Positions 45,812-62,595 of a stretch of DNA of 64,000 nt are shown piece by piece. This DNA is from Schmidtea polychroa (lineage: Eukaryota). The position numbers were made by a program, and so were the translations under genes. Under the pieces are notes generated by a model. The model was given only the letters and a program-made list of their open reading frames with translations. It was not told where the DNA came from and did not search any database. The DNA is taken from assembly GCA_044892525.1 (NCBI GenBank), contig CM097888.1, positions 4,154,001-4,218,000 of the forward strand, written 5' to 3'. How positions within the stretch are numbered: the first letter of the stretch is position 1; the number at the start of each line of letters is the position of its first letter.

Positions 45812-47528
45812 TTATATTTCATCCAAATCATCCAATCCCAATTCAGGGAAATCGCCCACCATGACATGTTGAGGCTTGATAAATGCACCATATCTCTCTG
45901 GGCAATCGAAATACAAAGTGCCGTCCACACTAGAAAGATTAACATAGACAGATGGAATCAGATATCTAATTGAAAACAAACGTTCCATTGTTCTTGCCTG
46001 ACGGCTCATCGTAATGAACACCAATCCAATAGCCAGGCTTGAAATGGGTGGTACCTATAATCGCTCTGGGTTACCATTATTATTATTATTACCACCAATT
46101 TATACCGATGTATTTCACTTGGCCCCGTTTTGCTGACTGATTAGGAACCCTCACCTCGCACCTGATGAATACGAGGAGAAACTTACAAATTTATTATTAT
46201 TAATTGTAATAATACTAATAAATATATAAATATTAATAAAAAATAATAAATAGTAATAATAATTAATTAATAATAATTATAAATAAATAAATATTAATAT
46301 TTAATATTATAAAATATTAATAAAAATAATAATATATAATAAATAAATATCAATAATAAATTTGAAAAAAGTTTTTATAATAATAAATATTAATAATAAT
46401 AATAATAACCAAATATTAATTAAAATAATAATATATAATAAATAAATATTTTTTCCATCCGAAAATATTGCATAAATCAAAAAAACCGGAATAATAAAAG
46501 AAATATAATCTTGGTGCACTTTTTGTTTTTATTTCAAAATAGCCGGTTGCTAGGCAACTGATAAATAAATGGCGCGCCACCAGATTGATATGCCAGGAAT
46601 ATTTCATAAATAAAATCATTCTAGTTAATTACAATTAATTACAACAAATTATATTATTGTCAACTATTATTATTATTCCTCGATGCGGAAATTTGATATA
46701 GATTTACACAATTAGCAATGACAATAAATAAAATATCATAAAAAACAAATCAAAGGCAACCAAAGAAAAAAGGATTCTTTATTAAAATAAATAATCTTTC
46801 ACATTTGATAATAATAATAATAAATTATAATCAAATTATAATAAAGTATAAATAATATTTTAAAAATCTAAAATACAAAATTTAAAGAAAAATTAGAAAT
46901 AGTTCCAAAGAGGAAATAAATTAAAATGAATTAAACAATTACCTGTCTCCGATTTTCATACTTTCCGCTTTCGTTATTTCCTCCTGAAGTTTTTTCTCAG
47001 CAGCTTCTTTTTTCATTCTTTCTTCTTCCGGATCTACCTCTCTGAATTGGCCCAATTTCATGCGGCGTTTAAATGCTAACACCGTGTCTAAGCAAGATTG
47101 AAAATTAAATCAAATTTCAAATAAAAATTCACCTTCCCGTTTGGCATATTCTTCAAAAGAAATCTCATAAAGTGGCTGAGATTCATCCATCGTTTCAAAT
47201 TCACCCCCTTTCAAGTTTGGATCAGTTGCATGAACACGCATCCTATCCTTTATTGGATAATCGCCCAAACATTTCATGTTGTCATCTAGCCATAGTAATG
47301 GCTCGTCATCTTCACCGAACACTTGTAGTTTCACGTGCCTGTGATCGCATCCAGTAACCAATTCCAATTTTGCCTATTTAGTAATATATGTTAGATGATT
47401 ACAACTTTGTAAATCACCTTAAACTCGCCTATTGTCAAATTATACGGATAGCGCTTCTCACATTGAACAGAAGTTGCATTATTAGTAATAAATAAACTGA
47501 TGTAACCACCTTGATAAATCGATGTCAT
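45812..47528 (-). CDS. TBCB: Tubulin-folding cofactor B, 6 exons, 247 aa
   Basis: Exons complement(47418-47528, 47133-47373, 46943-47087, 46106-46161, 45982-46054, 45812-45929). GT-AG introns, phases consistent. UBL N-terminus (EKRY..KLELVTG), CAP-Gly [20 protein letters not shown], and C-terminal GDFPE..DEI. Confidence 0.96.
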
Positions 47529-53100: not shown

Positions 53101-53417
53101 TGTTACTTTAAAGTATAAACATTATGTTGAGGATACCTAAATAAAATTACCTGGGGGAAGATCGCAGTTTAGAAACCAATCAGTGATTGTGATCTTTTAA
53201 TCCGGTGTTATACACAAGTGCTATTCCTCACCGAGTGTTGTAATAAGCATTGTATAGTCACCAAGTAGAGTGTTGAATTTATCGTCCGTGTCAAGTGAAA
53301 GTTTGTTTGTGATTATCAATAAAGATTTCTGTTGTCAAGTGTTATTTGTGAATTATATAAAGACACACTTGGAGTCAGAGTAACATTAAATTTTATCACC
53401 AACTCAATAACACAACA
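53101..53417 (+). repeat. Candidate 5' LTR (left boundary uncertain)
   Basis: Ends ..CACAACA five nt before the PBS. AATAAA at ~53318. The TG start at 53101 is a guess because the 3' LTR is not in the window. Confidence 0.45.
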
Positions 53418-53422
53418 TATTT

Positions 53423-53440
53423 TGGTGAGCCCAGCGTGAT
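53423..53440 (+). promoter_or_regulatory. Primer binding site, tRNA-Trp type
   Basis: TGGTGAGCCCAGCGTGAT. Its reverse complement ATCACGCTGGGCTCACCA fits the tRNA-Trp 3' end pattern (ATCACGTCGGGGTCACCA) with 3 differences. Confidence 0.7.
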
Positions 53441-53625
53441 CAAAAGTTGGTGAAGAGATTGTGAAAATAAAGTGTGGTAAATTGAAATTATTAAAGTGAT
53501 TTTGGAAAGGTAAATTGTTTATTGTAATAATAATTTGAGATTTAGATTTTGTGTAATTTGAAAAGAAATAATTTATTAAAGTGAAACGATATTATTTACG
53601 AAGCCAGAGTAAAAAGGAAGCCATA

Positions 53626-55574
53626 ATGAGCAGTGAAGATTTACCAGTTTCAGTTATTAAAGAAAATAATGATTTTGCCAGTTGTCAAAGATTGCCACTA
53701 GAGCAATATGGAGGAGATCCAATTATATTTGTTGATTTTATGAGCGATTACTATATGTATGCAACGGCTTATGGATGGTCTCACGCAATCATGAGGTTTG
53801 GCAACAAATCGACAGGAAAACAATCGGCAATGATTGGGCCAAATTAAAAGATGCATTGGCTGCTAAACTTATTGGAGGAGATATAAAGAGATTAATGCGT
53901 CAGAAATTTTATAATAGAGTTCAAAATCCAAATGAAACAGTGAGCGAATTTGCTTATCATTTATCGACTCTTGTCAGCAAATTCTTTGAAGAAGATTCGA
54001 AACAACCAGGATTAGCCCAACAGATGCAGGAACTGATTCAAGATCAATTTTTGTCCGGAGTAAATAAAGAAATAAAAACGGCATTATGTTTTGTAGAGTA
54101 TGACAATTTCGATGAACTAGTTAAAAAAGCAATGAAAATCGAATTGAACCTAAAGAGCTCTAAAAATAAATCTGAGGTATTTGCAATAATTCCAGTACAA
54201 AGAGAGAGATCAGTAACCCCAACCCAAGGCAATTTGGAATCAGGAAATAGATTTCAACGATCAAAGAGTCCATCACCTAAATGGAGAAACGATAATAATA
54301 TGAACAGAGCAAGCCAAAATTCACCCGGCACTGAGAGAGCTAAAGTTATTCCACTTGATATTTGTAAGAAAATTAGCCATTATACAAATCAGTGTTGGTT
54401 TAAAAATAATTCTGAAAGAGTACCCAGGAGATTGAGTCCAGATTGGCAAAGAGATAATAGAGGAACGAATTTTCGGAGAGCAATTCCTAATGTGAAGTCA
54501 AATTTTAATGAAGTACAATGTTATCGCTGTGGTGAAAAAGGACATGTTTCTAGAAATTGTTTTTCAAGATCAAGATCACCATCAATGTCACCATCACCAC
54601 AAAGAGATAATGTGAATTTAAATGGACAAATTCAATGTCATTTATGCAGAAATTATGGGCATATTGCAAGATCTTGTCCCAGGAATTCCGATAAATTTCA
54701 AAGACCAATTTTGAAACGAACGATTAGATTTCAGGAAGAAAGCCACTCAAAGAATAATGTTGCTTATGTTCAGAAAGATAAATTTAGAGAAAAAATTGAG
54801 AACGATGTCAAACAATTGAATCAAAAATTGAATAAATTGATGGCGAAATTTGAATCAGATGAAGAAACAGATTCTCATATGATGACAAGACGAAAATTGA
54901 AGACAGATGAATCCAAACTTGATGATGTTACAAGAAACCGAGTTAAAACGGATATGCAAAGTGAAAAGAGTACAATACTTATTGCTAAGGTCAGAAAATT
55001 AGTAACAGAACCTGATGCGAATTCTCAGAAATTGACGGAAGTATTGATGAAGCTAACGGAAATACCGTTGAGTTTAACCAAAATTAAAACTGTTATTAAA
55101 CTGTGTACCGAATGTTATGCAGCAAGTGTGGAAAAGCGAGATGTATTTGAAAAGTATATGAAAGAATTTGGCCAAACTCCACGAAAAATCAAATGGTTAG
55201 ACCCGATATTTATTAAAACAAATACATTAGATGACACCAAATCCGAGTATCAAGTTGAAGCATACGGAAAAATACGCGAGTTGAAAAGAGAAATAATGCA
55301 CAAATGTGAAGTTTGGGCAGTAGAACTTAGATTTATGAATCGAGTGTTGGAAGACGACGAATTTTTGATAGATTGTGGATTGATCTCCGGCGTTGAAAAT
55401 GAGATACAAATAGTGAGCATGATTGCCAATGTAAAACCAGTCAAATATGATGTCAATAAAATTAAATTTGAATTAAATGAAGCATTGATCAATGGAGATA
55501 CAGGTGATATTATTGATAAATTAAATAATATTTTGAATTTAGAATATGAAGTGCAAGATAAATTAAAAATTTAG
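53626..55574 (+). pseudogene. Gag (capsid-like, RS/SP-rich, CCHC knuckles) extended by a helical region and ubiquitin-like domain 1
   Basis: EQYGGDP..F..Y..YATAYGWS, frameshift ~53790, W..LKDAL..F..RVQNPNETVSEFA..L..DQFLSGV. Knuckles CYRCGEKGHVSRNC and CHLCRNYGHIARSC. C-terminal IFIKT..LRFMNRVLEDDEFLIDCG. Confidence 0.85.
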
Positions 55575-55618
55575 ATTGTGTCAGACCCTATGTAAATTAT
55601 GATAATAAATATAGTGAA

Positions 55619-55960
55619 ATGATAAAAAAGCTTATTCGTAAATTTGGACAAGAATTTAGAGAAAAAGGAGTTTATATTGAGCCATTCGTAATAATGTTAA
55701 AAATAAATGATCCAGAAGTGGAATGTACCAACGAGCATTGGTGTACGAAAGTGAGTAAAATACGACGGAGAGCAGCAGAAATTATGGGCAGTGATGGAAT
55801 AATTGTATTGACATACAAAGGTTTTGAGTTAGATGATGATGAGTACTTATTTGATTGTGGCTGTGTACCACGAAAATTTGATGAAAATGGATCTTTGGCG
55901 AATCAGGAAACGTTTATTAATGATTTATTAATGAAATTTAGTTGCGATGAAACAATTTGA
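55619..55960 (+). CDS. Ubiquitin-like domain 2 ORF of the retroelement
   Basis: KVSKIRRRAAEIMG..LTYKGFELDDDEYLFDCG resembles ubiquitin LIFAGKQLEDGRTLSDYN and UBL1. The frame is open back to 55562. Confidence 0.6.
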   Translation: MIKKLIRKFGQEFREKGVYIEPFVIMLKINDPEVECTNEHWCTKVSKIRRRAAEIMGSDGIIVLTYKGFELDDDEYLFDCGCVPRKFDENGSLANQETFINDLLMKFSCDETI

Positions 55961-56804
55961 ATCAAAGGAAGTAGAAAGCTTTAAAATGGAATTACCAAAC
56001 TGGGAAAATGAGATAATGAGTAATGATGATGAGATGCACGATGAACAAGAAATGAAAAGAGATGTAATATTAAATGAAACTGGAGAGATTATTGTTAAAA
56101 ATGAGATGAAGACTGAAGAAGATGAAATAGAAAATGAAGCGGAGCAGATTATTGTTGAGAATGAAATGAGAACTGAAGTTAAAAATGAGGCATATATGAC
56201 CAAGATGACGATTGATAATGATATTAAAGAAAAACAATGCAGAAATTTGTATGAAATAAGATGTCAAATAATACAGATATTTCAAGAGGAGAAAGATCAG
56301 AAAGACTCAAAGGAAACTGAGAAAATTGTACTTGCTCTAGTAAACGAATTATATGGTGAATCAACAGAGAGAATACAAGTTGAGAAATATGTGAGAAAAA
56401 TCGCAGAGAAAGTTAAAAAGAGATTTTGTGTAGTGTTAAAACAAGCAAAAGAAAGTATGGAATTTTGCGATGATAATGTGATAACTGAGATGATGACAAG
56501 GAAAATAGATAGAGATATGGTATTAACAATTATGAGTTATATTTTGTTAGAAATCGGAACCTATGATTGCTCAGATATGGAAAATCAAGAGGAAATAATT
56601 AAAACGGCGAGTAAAGTTTTACATAAACATGTTGGCGAATGGATAAAAGAGAATGGCGGTTGGGAAAAGCTGATTAAACAAAAAATAAAACCAGTTGTGG
56701 AATTGAGAGAAAATTATGAAGAGGTCTTGCAACGAAACACCATGAAATTTCCATTTTTAATGTTTATGATTATGATATTATTACAACTCAAACGACGTCT
56801 TTAA
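55947..56804 (+). CDS. Acidic N-terminus plus Bcl-2-like domain with C-terminal hydrophobic segment
   Basis: BH2 WIKENGGWEKL (56640-56672), BH3-like VRKIAEKVKKRF, divergent BH1 position EMMTRKIDRDMVLTIMSY, then FPFLMFMIMILL. Confidence 0.7.
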   Translation: MKQFESKEVESFKMELPNWENEIMSNDDEMHDEQEMKRDVILNETGEIIVKNEMKTEEDEIENEAEQIIVENEMRTEVKNEAYMTKMTIDNDIKEKQCRNLYEIRCQIIQIFQEEKDQKDSKETEKIVLALVNELYGESTERIQVEKYVRKIAEKVKKRFCVVLKQAKESMEFCDDNVITEMMTRKIDRDMVLTIMSYILLEIGTYDCSDMENQEEIIKTASKVLHKHVGEWIKENGGWEKLIKQKIKPVVELRENYEEVLQRNTMKFPFLMFMIMILLQLKRRL

Positions 56805-58839
56805 TCGCTTACGACTGTTCTCAAACAAAAATGGGAAAGGTATATTCGATGGTAGATATGACAGAATGTCCAGATGCACATCCACTGAGTTTAACAGTGG
56901 AAAAGGATGTAAAATATTATGTATATCAAGAGTCTGGATTTAGACATGCCACGGTGAGAGAGTGTATTGTGAAGAGAACAAGTTTTGTATTCTATTGTGG
57001 CAAATGGAGTCACACATCATTAATAAAAATGTATGCAATACCAAGGCCAGTTGATGTAAATCCAGAAAATTGCATGGCTGCATTCCAGAACGGAGAACTG
57101 AAAATAAGTCCCGAAATTAAATTGAAGGCGAATTGAATCATGCAATACGAGAAACGATTATTGAAAAAGTGGTGATAAAGGCCAATGGTGATTGTGAAGG
57201 CGAACCATACAAAATGAATGGGCAAATTATTGACAAAGTTGTTGTGATGGAGGAATATTTAACAGAATTGAGAGAATTTAAAGGAGCTTTTGACGATGAT
57301 ACAGGCAAATTACAAACTCATCCATTCTGTAATATGAAACAGACCAGTTGTCAAACAGGAAAATCGATTTTGGTATATGAAGTAAAGACAAATTTGTGTA
57401 ACTTGATACATTTGAAATCAATGAGTTTCAATGAAATGAGTGGCGAACAATTGAGAGATAGACCGGAAAGTTTGAATGTGGAAGCAAAGCCGGATATGAC
57501 AGTTAAAATTACGCGATTGAGAAAGAGAAAAACTCCAGTAGTTCTGATGTCAACTTTATTGGACGATGGGATGAGATTCATACGAAAACGAGTAGTGGAT
57601 AAGTGCGGCCAAACGGTGTATGAGACAAATTATAAAGGGATTTATGTGTCCAAGAAAAGAGTCGAGGAAGCTCAAATGAAAATACATAGTACAGATATTA
57701 AATTGACAAATTATTTCAATAACAAAATAGATTATCTATTCCATTACAGCCAAAGCATTGTGGAAAATATTTATCGAGAAATGATATTAAACGATTGTAA
57801 ATTAAACAAAGAAATATTACGAAATAGAATGGCGATGGCGGTCACAAATCCGAATTTAGTAGCACCTATGTTAATATCGGAAAACGGTGTATTTGCAAGG
57901 ATATTTGGTGAAGCGTTGTATAGCTATAAATGCAATAAGATTTCCGTACAAATTATAAAACACGAACAATGCACAAATGAATTACCAGTGAGTGTCAATG
58001 GTAAACTCAGATTTATGGAACCAATAACTCGGATATTGTTAGAGGAAGACGTAAAACCAAAGGTTTTAAAATGCAACAGATTACTCGCACCATTATATCG
58101 ATTAACACCAGATTCATGGATATCGTTACCAGATCACAAAGGAGTAAAAACTCCAGAAAAGCTCGAATTAACAAAGCTTGAGTATTTAATAAATTTCACA
58201 TCATTGGATAAATTAGCACAAACCGGATTGTATTCTCAAGAAGATGTTGAGGAAGCTAGAATGAATTTGTTATTTCCATCGAAAAAGGAACGAGTAATAA
58301 CTGAAATGATTGATACTATACTACCAGGAGGTGAAGGAAAAGTAAACTATGATTATCTATTAACACCAGATTATTATAAAAAGGCAACGTATAATACGAT
58401 GAAAAAGATATGGGGAAAATTTATGTTTTTAGGACAAGCGTGTGCGGGATTGATTGGAATTTATGTTATGATAGTGATGACAAAGGTAATAATATCTCAA
58501 ATATTAACTACACACCAATTATATGTTATATCTGGTTGGTCATGGAAATTGATTATTGGATGCATACCGTTCTTGGCCAGATTTCTGATTACCAAGCATC
58601 AATACAAAGAAATGGGGAAAGTAAAATCACGATTAACTAACAATAAAAGAAATATTGATTCAAGTTCGAGTAATGAAAGTGGAGATGGGGATAATGATAA
58701 TGATAAACCAAGAGTACCCCCTATGTATTATTATAAAAATAATAAAACAAAAATAAATGATATAAAGGAAAAATCTAAATCTATGAGTTTATTACATACA
58801 GTACCACAGGCAAGTGGAACAGACACTTTCAGTCGATAA
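56742..58839 (+). pseudogene. Chuvirus-like / herpes gB-like (class III) envelope glycoprotein with two 1-nt frameshifts
   Basis: Signal MKFPFLMFMIMIL, then (frameshift) TSLIAYDC, CGKWSH, GDCEG, YFNNKIDY, DCKLNKEIL, GEALYSYKC, CTNELPV, FMEPITRIL, GLYS.EDVE, C-terminal TM and GWS. Frameshifts at ~56782 and ~57132. Confidence 0.8.
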
Positions 58840-58881
58840 TGTATTCCAAAAACTTTTATTCCAACAGCAGCAATATATCCA

Positions 58882-59901
58882 ATGGAAAAACTAAAGGAAA
58901 TGAGGCCAATTGAGAATATTGAATTAACAAATGAGCAAATTATACCGACAAGTGCAGAAATTGAAAGGAGAAATATGCTGGGATTACCAGGAAATTATGC
59001 GCTAATGACAGTCGGAAACAGAGGCAGACAACCAAGAATATGGGTACAAGTAAATAAACATAGAGTTGAAGCATTTTTAGATTCAGGTTCGAGTAATACG
59101 ATATTATCAGACGAAGTGTTGAATTCAGCTGAGAAAGCACAAATGAAAAGTACAGAAGAAGTGGTACGATCAATGACGAAAAACAAACTAAATATTATTG
59201 GGCAGATTAGAGTCAAGTTCAATATTGGAAATCAGGAAATTGCTCATGATATTCTAATAATGCAAAATTGTCCAGTGGAATGCTTAGTGGGTATGGATGT
59301 TTTAGCACAGCTAGAAGGAGTTTGTCTTGATTTGAAAACGGGAAATTTGATTATGGGAGAAACGGGGAAAGCCATTCATGAAACAGGAGACGTGTTTCTA
59401 AACCAAACATTAAGAGTTCCACCTCAAAGTAAAGTTATTTGTTATGTGAATACAATGGGAGTTCCAGATGATGAATTTATATTTCAACCAAGTGAAACAT
59501 TAATCGAAAAGTATGATATCCCCATGTGCGACGAACTAGTAAAAGTCCAAGAGCAATTAATTCCCGTTTATATTACCAACAATAATGATAAAGAAATAGC
59601 ATTAGGACCAAAAACGAAATTGGGAAAGTTGACAAAAATCTTAAAAATGGACAATAAAAGATTACCGAAAAATATAAAAATATACAAAGAACCTCAAGTA
59701 AACAGTAAAGATTTGACCCAAGAACAAATACAAACATTTATGAAATTATTGAGAAAATATCAAGACGTCTTTGCAAATCATGAATATGATCTAGGAGTTA
59801 CTCATGTAATTGAGCACGAAATTCCATTAATGGATGAAACTCCAATTAAACTACGACCATACAGAATTCCTTATGCACATCAAGAGGAAAGTGATAGATA
59901 A
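58882..59901 (+). CDS. Retropepsin protease, linker and RT N-terminus (pol part 1)
   Basis: VEAFLDSGSSNTIL, CLVGMDVL, LLRKYQDVF..DLG..IEHEI..PIKLRPYRIP. Same frame as the G ORF and as 59911. Confidence 0.92.
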   Translation: MEKLKEMRPIENIELTNEQIIPTSAEIERRNMLGLPGNYALMTVGNRGRQPRIWVQVNKHRVEAFLDSGSSNTILSDEVLNSAEKAQMKSTEEVVRSMTKNKLNIIGQIRVKFNIGNQEIAHDILIMQNCPVECLVGMDVLAQLEGVCLDLKTGNLIMGETGKAIHETGDVFLNQTLRVPPQSKVICYVNTMGVPDDEFIFQPSETLIEKYDIPMCDELVKVQEQLIPVYITNNNDKEIALGPKTKLGKLTKILKMDNKRLPKNIKIYKEPQVNSKDLTQEQIQTFMKLLRKYQDVFANHEYDLGVTHVIEHEIPLMDETPIKLRPYRIPYAHQEESDR

Positions 59902-59910
59902 ATAAAGGAT

Positions 59911-61150
59911 ATGAAGGATTTCAATATCATCAGAGACAGTTTTTCACCATTTTCTTCATCCATTGTTGTTGTTAAGAAAAAAGACGGTGAAATAAGATTT
60001 TGTATCGATTATCGAAAACTGAACCAAGTTACAAGAAAGGATACATATCCAATCCCAGTTACTCAGGAAATGTTCGACAAAATGGGAGAAGCTCAATATT
60101 TTACTGTTATTGATTTAAATAAAGGGTATAATCAATTCAAATATCATGATGGAGCATTGGGTGGACATTTATCAGCAAGAAAAACAATGTCACGATTAAA
60201 ACTAAAGTATTTTTGGAATACAATGGACCAAGATGTAAAGCATTGGTGTAATACGTGCAAAATTTGTCTAACTCGAAAGAATACAGGAAAGAAAATAAAA
60301 GTCCCACTAAAACCAATGCCAATACCAGCAGCGCCAATGGAATTTTCAGCAATGGATATTATCGGGCCCTTACCCGAAACTACAAATGGAAATAAATATA
60401 TTATTGTATTTTGTGATTATTTAACAAAATGGCCAGAGGCGTACGCAATACCAAATCAAAAAGCGGAAACAGTTGCTCAAATATTTGTCGAAAAGATTAT
60501 ATTCAGATATGGTGCTCCAAAGAAATTGTTAACAGATCAAGGAACAAATTTTGAAAGTGATTTATTTAAATCTATTACCGAATTATTTGGTATTTATAAA
60601 TTAAATACATCACCATATCACCCGCAAACTGACGGGCTAGTAGAAAGATTTAATGGTACTTTAATCAATATGATTGGGACTTATTTATCAAACCATGTCT
60701 GTTTGCCTATCGAAATGCAGTTAACGAGAGTACGGGTGAAACACCTTTTTATTTAATGTATTTGAGACGAAACAATATGCCAATTGACCTGAAATTTCAA
60801 CCCCCAACGTCTCAATATATGGACGTTCCAAATTATAAAGTAATAATGCAAGAACGATTACAATCTGCATGGACTCGTGCGGGGTTAAAAATTAAGTATC
60901 GTCAGGAACAATATAAAGAAAACTATGACAAAAAGGCGCATGAGCACGGAATAAAAGTCGGAGATTCAGTATATTTAAATAGGCCAGAGCCAGTAAAGGG
61001 CCTATCAACAAAATTACAAAGACCATTCAAGGGTCCATACACAGTGTGTGATGTTACAGCAACTAATTTGAAGTTACGTCCAATGAATAACAAAAGAGCA
61101 GAAACAATTATAGTTCATGCCAATCGATGTAAGAAAGTATCCGAAATAGA
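59911..61150 (+). pseudogene. Truncated RT fused in-frame to integrase (most of RT and all of RNase H deleted)
   Basis: SPFSSSIVVVKKKDGEIRFCIDYRKLN..IDLNKGYNQ joined directly to HDGALGGH..C..C (HHCC). Core MDIIGPL / TDQGTNF / GLVERFNGTL. Frameshift ~60700, then GPY/F motif RPFKGPY. Confidence 0.93.
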
Positions 61151-61238
61151 GTATCAATTACGATCAAAACAAAAGAAACTTAATGATGAAAAAATTATTC
61201 AACAAAAATTTCATAAAAACCCTACGCCATTGGGATAT

Positions 61239-62408
61239 ATGAACAGAGTTTTATTTATAACTACAGTCTTAATAAATATCATAGCAAATGCAAGTGGAAT
61301 AACAATGAATCTACCATATGCAGTAGAAAGAGTACCCTTATTGGATAAAATTTATATATATTCAACATTTACTAGTATTGAGTGTGAAATATCAGAACAA
61401 ATAGAAGTTAGTAATTTATTGAACCCTTTCGAACCATCTGTTACGTTGAATTATGAGAAAAGCATATATGTAGCTCGTCGATTGACAGCAAATTACAAAT
61501 ATCCTTGGACCATTAAACGATATACGCATTAAACAAATACTACTCAAAATATTTATAACCTTATACAAATTAACATTTGGACAAATGAATGGAGAAATTT
61601 AGTTGAAATTGAACCAATGATAAATGAAATTCACGTATATTGGAAAGCGGAAGAGCAACAGAAACTCAGAATTGTTTTTCAAAACATTACGATTGAAACA
61701 TTAAATAAAAGAAAATCTTTTGTTAAATACAAAAATTTACAAGAAAATCTCACTTACAGTCTTTCAATACATTATTACGAGAAACTCATTCATGACAATG
61801 GGACGTATATGAATAATCAATGGATAGAAGTGCAGAGTCAATATGAAGCAGTACACTTGGTTAACGAAACTAATCGAGTTCAAATAAAAATTGAGAACAA
61901 TGAAATAATTGTGTTACCCCAACCAGGCCTCAGACAAAGGGTAAATATTTTTGTAAATAATAAAATTCAGGTGGTGTTAGACGAATACCAACAAAGAGCA
62001 AAGTTGAGTACCTTGAACTCAGTATCTAATCCGAAACCAAGAAATTTCATGATCAAAATTCAATATTGCAAGCGAAAAGCGAACTCAGATCAATGGCAAG
62101 TCACTTTCATTGAAAATAGACATATTCATCTTCCTCATACTCAAACCATTGGAGAAATAATAAGTGATCATAATCTAACATTAACCGTAAAACCCTCATG
62201 GTCAAAAAACGAAAGCTTTTCACTAAACTGTAAAGAAAAATCATCTCATAACAATTGTGTCGAATTGCTATTCATATGTATCATTGTGGCAATACCAAGC
62301 GGTATCTTACTCATCTACATTGTTCTAATCTTGAGAAGTAATGACAATGACAATTCTATCTGCGACTATCAATATTCTGAGCCGCAGCAGTTAGAGACAT
62401 GGGTGTAG
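61239..62408 (+). pseudogene. Type I membrane glycoprotein with FN3-like segment (one in-frame stop at 61530-61532)
   Basis: Signal-like MNRVLFITTVLINIIANASG, multiple N-x-S/T sites, HVYW..KNLQENLTYSLSIH (FN3-like), TM LLFICIIVAIPSGILLIYIVLIL, and tail ending ETWV*. Confidence 0.6.
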
Positions 62409-62595
62409 TAAGATATGATTTCATTGCATGCTATTGATATCGTAGAGTATTTCTTTCTTTCATACCTTTTATAATTACATAAAAATGACTAATAGTGATC
62501 TTGTATTGTGATTATTCGTGATCTAAAATTAAATTAACCAAGGAATTAACCAATCAAATTACTGTAATTTGATTGGTTAAACGATTGCACTACTG

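Follow-up and report, generated by a model that had tools for sequence, protein, structure and literature searches.

A retroelement in the planarian Schmidtea polychroa carries, between the zinc knuckles of its Gag and a Bcl-2-like domain, a module of ~150 amino acids that is present twice and that consists each time of a four-helix bundle followed by a ubiquitin-like domain (UBL). Both UBL segments are confidently modeled as beta-grasp domains, and the doubled module is under purifying selection in sister families, with UBL dN/dS values of about 0.2-0.35. We think the chances are about even that the predicted UBLs are non-conjugated docking domains, rather than ubiquitin tags, within a block of host-manipulating cargo. 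The element lies in a 64,000-nucleotide stretch of contig CM097888.1 (the window). A previous sequence-only reading of the window had noticed two ubiquitin-like domains here; it had missed that each is part of a duplicated helix-plus-UBL unit, that the local copy has frame breaks, and that a Ubi/SUMO-like motif is already published for Burro elements (PMC6431247).

Results and Discussion

The element and its copies

Judged from its sequence, the element is a compact Burro-like Ty3/gypsy retroelement with a Gag-Env-Pol polyprotein (Table 1). Its LTRs are about 15 kb apart, with the partner ~4.1-4.3 kb past the right window end, giving an element of ~15.2 kb. The Pfam matches are arranged in the order Gag (CCHC), ubiquitin, Bcl-2, Monjiviricetes fusion protein, protease, RT fragment, integrase, extra ORFs and exonuclease. 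LTRs, a CCHC-knuckle Gag and the PR-RT-RH-IN order are thus present as in the planarian GAG-ENV-POL Ty3/gypsy errantiviruses, with RT/RH partly deleted in the window copy: compared with another copy, ~1.2 kb of RT/RNase H is lacking at ~60140. A gB/mononegavirus-type env lies in frame between gag and pol, downstream of the Bcl-2-like motif (PF24664 matches; single-frame copies). The BH2-like end of the Bcl-2-like domain is at 56619-56672, and the signal-peptide-like stretch that follows it starts, by eye, at 56742.

Table 1. Features of the window copy of the element, in window coordinates.
Feature	Position	Strand	Evidence
5' LTR (matched part)	53158..53423	+	direct repeat, 268 bp, 97.4% identity
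Gag capsid and nucleocapsid	53572..54700	+	Retrotrans_gag E 4.9e-5, zf-CCHC E 5.3e-9
CCHC knuckles of Gag	54519-54560, 54636-54677	+	zf-CCHC
Helical bundle 1, four helices in two hairpins	54969..55187	+	AF2 pLDDT 80.7
UBL1, predicted beta-grasp, no Gly-Gly, Ile44-equivalent Arg	55197..55427	+	Pfam, AF2, VIA, alignment
Helical bundle 2, homologous to bundle 1, frame break near 55562-55574	55452..55666	+	bundle 1 versus bundle 2 profile probability 93.9%
UBL2, predicted beta-grasp, no Gly-Gly, non-polar sheet face, last strand cut	55679..55955	+	AF2, profile, alignment
Acidic linker, then Bcl-2-like domain	55960..56680	+	Pfam Bcl-2 E 2.5e-4, below cut-off
Signal-peptide-like internal hydrophobic stretch and Monjiviricetes/gB-type fusion glycoprotein	56720..58640	+	PF24664 E 2.4e-14, 2.1e-70
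Aspartic protease	59038..59313	+	Asp_protease E 2.8e-9
RT fragment fused to integrase	59902..60624	+	Pfam; comparison with another copy

Two further groups of features were observed in and around the pol region. Candidate late-domain motifs lie between the Env transmembrane region and the protease (58717-58728 and 58855-58881; also in loci L097, L051, L053 and L054); PPxY occurs in the window family, and PTAP occurs in families 1 and 2, is altered in the window copy and is absent in family 3. After the integrase, still within the LTRs, the ORFs at 61230-63690 (+) include a probable membrane protein (no Pfam match), a 173-aa ORF and an RNase_T-type exonuclease (E 2.9e-6).

Of 481 candidates from a genome search, 40 were scored and every one matched; 39 of these are other copies, 92-96% identical. 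A sequencing-run search listed no RNA holder, which carries no information on expression. The doubled helix-plus-UBL region is also present in sister families (34-41% identity), whose long ORFs extend from Gag across Env as far as integrase. The window copy itself is broken as follows: the 5' end of Gag is in its own short frame; the main Gag frame (612 aa, 53736-55574, stop at 55572-55574) has UBL1 at its end; UBL2 is in a different frame (55562-55960); a second break near 55925-55938 severs the last strand of UBL2; a third frame (55935-56804) holds the acidic stretch and the Bcl-2-like domain; and the fusion glycoprotein is split over several frames. Because other copies keep intact frames, these breaks represent decay of the window copy: among 20 copies (the window copy included), both UBL cores share one stop-free frame in 15, and the Gag knuckle, both UBL motifs, BH2 and the Env start are all in one frame in 7. 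From its reading frames, the window copy could make at most a Gag-bundle1-UBL1 product.

Fold of the ubiquitin-like domains

Are these segments in fact folded like ubiquitin? An AF2 model was built on the natural unbroken stretch of a sister copy with a 17-row alignment (pLDDT 84.6, pTM 0.49), and its DSSP assignment gives four helices, a beta-grasp domain, four more helices and a second beta-grasp domain. UBL1 from this model superimposes on ubiquitin in VIA with Z 12.0 and an rmsd of 1.2 Å over 72 residues, so that its resemblance to ubiquitin, which had been proposed from the letters alone, is borne out. In all 50 of 50 VIA rows a ubiquitin-like domain is aligned, none with a higher Z than this; ubiquitin, Rad23, Hub1, SUMO, BAG1 and ubiquilin-type domains are tied within ~1 Z unit, and this near-tie of many UBL types means that the fold singles out no pathway. 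The top Foldseek matches are ISG15 and linear poly-ubiquitin (probability 1.0), and a PDB profile search returned nearly all ubiquitin-family chains, spanning both halves of the module, with a best E of 1.4e-4 for ISG15, which ranks first because the two UBLs score jointly. The fold of UBL2 was assigned from its profile match to UBL1 and its co-alignment with poly-ubiquitin chains (model range 76-327). With DSSP of the AF2 model, the superposition for UBL1, and the profile and co-alignment for UBL2, the beta-beta-alpha-beta-beta-(alpha)-beta topology of ubiquitin is found in the predicted domains. A fold other than beta-grasp had been named in advance as the outcome that would overturn the assignment, and AF2, Foldseek and VIA all give beta-grasp.

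The sequence scores are low. Pfam ubiquitin matches window UBL1 with E 2.6e-4, below the curated cut-off, and does not match window UBL2 alone; the best sequence matches of UBL1 are ubiquilin and Rad23 at E 0.07-0.2, which are not significant. These scores, together with the broken state of the window copy, are what could be said for a chance resemblance or decayed junk, but the confident beta-grasp model, the Z of 12, the shuffle controls that were passed, the conservation across families and the purifying selection leave that explanation with next to no probability.

The predicted domains are similar to the integral UBLs of Rad23, ubiquilin, BAG1 and HOIL-1L in having a beta-grasp fold (Z 10.4-11.9) and no Gly-Gly, and a Cys-Gly motif is common to UBL1, Rad23 and ubiquilin-3. 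They differ from integral UBLs in that the Ile44-equivalent of UBL1 is Arg, Lys or Gly, in that each UBL is fused behind a four-helix bundle, and in that no family stands out.

A duplicated two-domain unit

The two UBLs had been described as tandem. There are indeed two, and the UBL2 repeat of the UBL1 signature is confirmed (signature core at 55805-55861; UBL1 versus UBL2 alone gives a profile match of 97.9%, with real scores of 23-47 bits against a shuffled maximum of 9.5), but they do not abut, since ~85 amino acids with a four-helix bundle lie between them, and in the window copy they are in different frames. A homologous bundle lies upstream of UBL1, and when helix and UBL are compared together, unit 1 matches unit 2 in hhalign at 98.7%, versus 0.08% for an unrelated-pair control. 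In a tree of 19 units the first and second units are split by one branch, with weak support (74/72); for the four local families, the second units form a supported group of their own (97/97), deep nodes being weak. This pattern fits a duplication of the unit that preceded the divergence of the compact families.

Where else is the unit found? A HMMER scan of cluster representatives found eight metagenome proteins, without name or taxon, that match it; two of them are Gag proteins with a single unit, two have two units (one partial), and one metagenome Gag protein has, by eye, a BH2-like end. ESM Atlas matches all scored under 0.8 and are leads at best, and word-based homologue searches gave no match at E<=0.001, a weak negative. 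Of at least 150 genome matches, 15 places were examined for a host gene that could have donated the unit; all 15 are element copies.

Folded alone, the bundle gives the AF2 confidence listed in Table 1. Foldseek found no significant match to it, Pfam and PDB sequence searches found nothing significant, and VIA gave generic helical-hairpin matches only (best Z 9.7), HEAT/TPR-like and designed proteins included. A TFIIS N-terminal domain was considered for the bundle and is not supported: hhalign against 10 host TFIIS-N domains gives 0.7%, which is at the level of the reversed control, and the VIA Z of 8.1-8.7 is also reached by unrelated HEAT/TPR-like and designed proteins. The host TFIIS-N (PF08711) genes themselves include many near-identical members clustered on C2 at 164-172 Mb and on C31 of this genome assembly (G000), with 24 matches among 36 candidates genome-wide, which suggests a local expansion.

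Tails of the UBLs and polyprotein processing

Gly-Gly follows the last strand in none of 19 UBL1 tails and none of 19 UBL2 tails, so the statement that neither UBL ends in Gly-Gly holds for the other copies as well as for the window. An (L/I/R)xxGG motif is likewise absent from the Gag side of the long ORFs at eight loci and in four metagenome proteins. The description of these domains as non-conjugatable UBLs in a retroelement stands, given the beta-grasp prediction, the lack of Gly-Gly and a position internal to the polyprotein. The accompanying analogy to baculovirus v-ubi and pestivirus inserts does not, as those rely on genuine ubiquitin with a cleavable C-terminus (PMC8310069, in the part covered here). 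In fold, the planarian UBLs are similar to ISG15, FAT10, di-ubiquitin, v-ubi and the pestivirus inserts; they differ from all of these in having no Gly-Gly and only ~20% identity to ubiquitin, and the UBLs of ISG15 and di-ubiquitin are head-to-tail whereas the planarian ones are split by a helical bundle. A pestivirus-type processing signal, to be cut by host deubiquitinases, would suit the internal polyprotein position, and the structural matches include BVDV polyprotein ubiquitin inserts. We nevertheless judge it very improbable, both because of the tails and Gag-side sequences just described and because the element encodes its own protease.

Surfaces of the UBLs

Positions equivalent to Ile44 and Lys48 of ubiquitin were assigned by sequence alignment to ubiquilin, Rad23 and ISG15. 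In 19 copies, the Ile44 position of UBL1 is R in six, K in six and G in seven; that of UBL2 is T in 14 and V in four, with one copy scored as K, and it has a non-polar neighbor. At the Lys48 position UBL1 has R and UBL2 has F, and neither Lys48 nor the Leu8/Ile44 pair is conserved. Considering positions 42 and 44 together (alignment, by eye), second or single units have V/I/L/M and T/V/M/I in nine of nine cases, and first units have E/Q and R/K in four of four. On the alignment, then, UBL2 has a non-polar sheet face and UBL1 has no Ile44-type patch, the ubiquitin surface used by proteasome receptors. The likeness to ubiquitin thus holds for the fold and fails at the Ile44 position of UBL1, and the proteasome/DUB/ESCRT adaptor or decoy role that had been suggested appears unlikely for UBL1 because that position is Arg, Lys or Gly, and possible for UBL2.

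A related proposal is a built-in ubiquitin late domain, in which UBL2 and the PTAP motif would recruit ESCRT ubiquitin-binding proteins for budding. The UBLs do lie downstream of the zinc knuckles, PTAP is found between Env and protease in all four family-1/2 copies scanned there, and ubiquitin without Gly-Gly fused to Gag can substitute for a late domain, in synergy with PSAP (PMC2958808, in the part covered here). That rescue, however, required Leu8 and Ile44 (same source), which neither UBL keeps; moreover, PTAP is missing from both third-family copies scanned and would be on a different cleavage product from the UBLs. We therefore consider this proposal improbable.

Selection, and a possible spacer or turnover element

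Pairwise Nei-Gojobori comparisons of two sister subfamilies give dN/dS values of 0.10/0.45 (0.22) for UBL1 and 0.04/0.23 (0.17) for UBL2. The window family compared with a sister gives 0.50/1.67 (~0.30) and 0.36/1.01 (~0.36), respectively, and one within-family pair gives 0.04/0.07; several third-family comparisons are saturated. Among the cargo domains UBL2 is conserved best (53-59% identity, versus 29-35% for the Bcl-2-like domain), and it is less conserved than Gag and Env. The invariant columns of the unit are G, D/E, L and G.

Such columns could be purely structural, and part of the UBL conservation may reflect mere folding needs within a polyprotein. This bears on another explanation, that the module serves as a stable spacer, assists folding or directs to the proteasome, and in this way sets the amount of Gag-side product from a one-ORF polyprotein, without any signaling partner. 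All genes are in one frame in several copies, an arrangement that removes the usual excess of Gag, and the closest (not significant) sequence relatives of UBL1 noted above, ubiquilin and Rad23, are proteasome-shuttle UBLs. On the other hand, UBL1 does not have the Ile44-type patch for proteasome receptors, and two joined domains, duplicated and held at dN/dS ~0.2, are more than a plain spacer calls for; on balance we think this explanation unlikely, while giving it serious weight.

Relationship to Burro and other planarian elements

Burro elements are described as having a "Ubi2/SUMO-like (PF11976)" motif between MATH and BCL-2, with env in frame between gag and pol (Arkhipova & Yushenova 2019, PMC6431247). 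The covered part of that paper mentions a single motif, in a single line, and describes neither a helical partner nor a duplication nor a function. The window family is similar to these Burro/GYPSM1 giants (same source) in its CCHC-knuckle Gag, its Ubi2/SUMO-like motif before a BCL-2-like domain and its mononegavirus-type env between gag and pol, and differs from them in its length (~15 kb versus >30 kb) and in having two adjacent units. It is also not Burro1/GYPSM1 itself, which at >30 kb has a ~4,900-aa ORF with MATH, ankyrin and BIR cargo; MATH, ankyrin and BIR gave no match in the scanned ORFs of the window family.

Among BIR-bearing elements of the same genome whose flanks were examined, one is a Burro1-type giant with Gag-CCHC, MATH, Env, PR, RT, RH, IN and ankyrin, followed by TRAF and BIR-RING ORFs. 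The unit profile matches a homologous unit in this giant between MATH and the Bcl-2-like end (HMM iE 8.5e-6; hhalign 88%, control 0.1%), so the published Burro motif is very likely the helix-plus-UBL unit. A weaker match lies upstream of MATH (iE 0.029; 28%). A possible third UBL-like segment was seen by eye in the Burro1-type giant (L110:5042-9901 (+), ~aa 555-630), in which Pfam finds no ubiquitin match.

Six GAG-ENV-POL elements are listed for Schmidtea mediterranea (Chary & Hayashi 2026, PMC13524379, in the part covered here). The window element has the gene order and Env type of two of them, the HSV/gB-type Smed_errantivirus_1 and _2. By eye, a sister family (L064) agrees with Smed_errantivirus_2 at 96 of 97 Env residues and a window-family copy agrees with Smed_1 at ~74 of 97, as would be expected in a Schmidtea host; over that Env stretch the window family is identical to none of the six (published rows from PMC13524379). 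The covered portion of that paper's main text does not mention "ubiquitin", "Ubl" or "Bcl", and our literature search for a ubiquitin-like domain in a gag or polyprotein of gypsy LTR retrotransposons found no paper. The motif is already published in outline for Burro elements; to the literature found, the present analysis adds the boundaries of the two domains, their duplication, their selection and their differing surfaces.

Possible functions of the module

What might a doubled, non-conjugatable UBL module do? If the UBLs are non-conjugated docking domains, as proposed at the outset, the following steps are inferred. Signal peptidase would cut before Env (a topology predicted from sequence), leaving a cytosolic, membrane-anchored Gag-[helix-UBL]x2-Bcl-2-like product. 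The non-polar sheet face of UBL2 would bind a host ubiquitin- or apoptosis-signaling protein, and UBL1 would have diverged into a scaffold. This would place the module in one block of host-survival cargo together with the Bcl-2-like domain and, for the giants, with MATH/TRAF and BIR-RING.

A more specific form of the docking reading is that the helix-plus-UBL unit is a retroelement-specific fused ubiquitin mimic that would recruit ESCRT or ubiquitin signaling to membrane-anchored Gag, with UBL2 binding and UBL1 scaffolding. By analogy, such a unit would be a natural counterpart of engineered Gag-ubiquitin fusions. We regard the mimic as doubtful, and the parallel with the engineered fusions as equally so. 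If the module does recruit ESCRT or apoptosis-signaling proteins, a retroelement would have hard-wired a ubiquitin mimic into its Gag. Burro-type elements, which are both large and abundant, reportedly influence the survival of planarian stem cells; the IAP cargo of Burro1 is reported, second-hand, to protect stem cells from apoptosis (PMC13465017, in the part covered here). The ubiquitin-like cargo of these elements, which had a one-line mention in the literature found, can now be described as two domains with clear limits that together form a module of ~150 aa.

Other ubiquitin-related and neighboring loci

A different multi-copy family, with DUF1759 (which we take to be a BEL/Pao-type Gag), carries near-authentic ubiquitin upstream of DUF1759 at L103:1967-6013 (-), L105:2674-6858 (+), L108:2977-6981 (+) and L106:1550-5008 (-). 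L103, L105 and L108 each have a di-ubiquitin in which both units are followed by Gly-Gly, and L106 has a single unit. Captured host pieces lie farther upstream in two of these loci, a dual-specificity phosphatase in L105 and EAP30 plus a proteasome subunit in L106. Pestivirus-like processing would fit the ubiquitins of this family, by analogy.

Within the window, an unrelated host exon at 47110-47373 (-) also encodes a ubiquitin-like domain (PF14560, E 3.1e-11) and presumably belongs to tubulin cofactor B. To the right of the window, a cluster at L062:8198-10000 and L063:1-9487 (-) contains polymerase, capsid and integrase-like ORFs, and its motifs resemble those of a Polinton/Maverick element.
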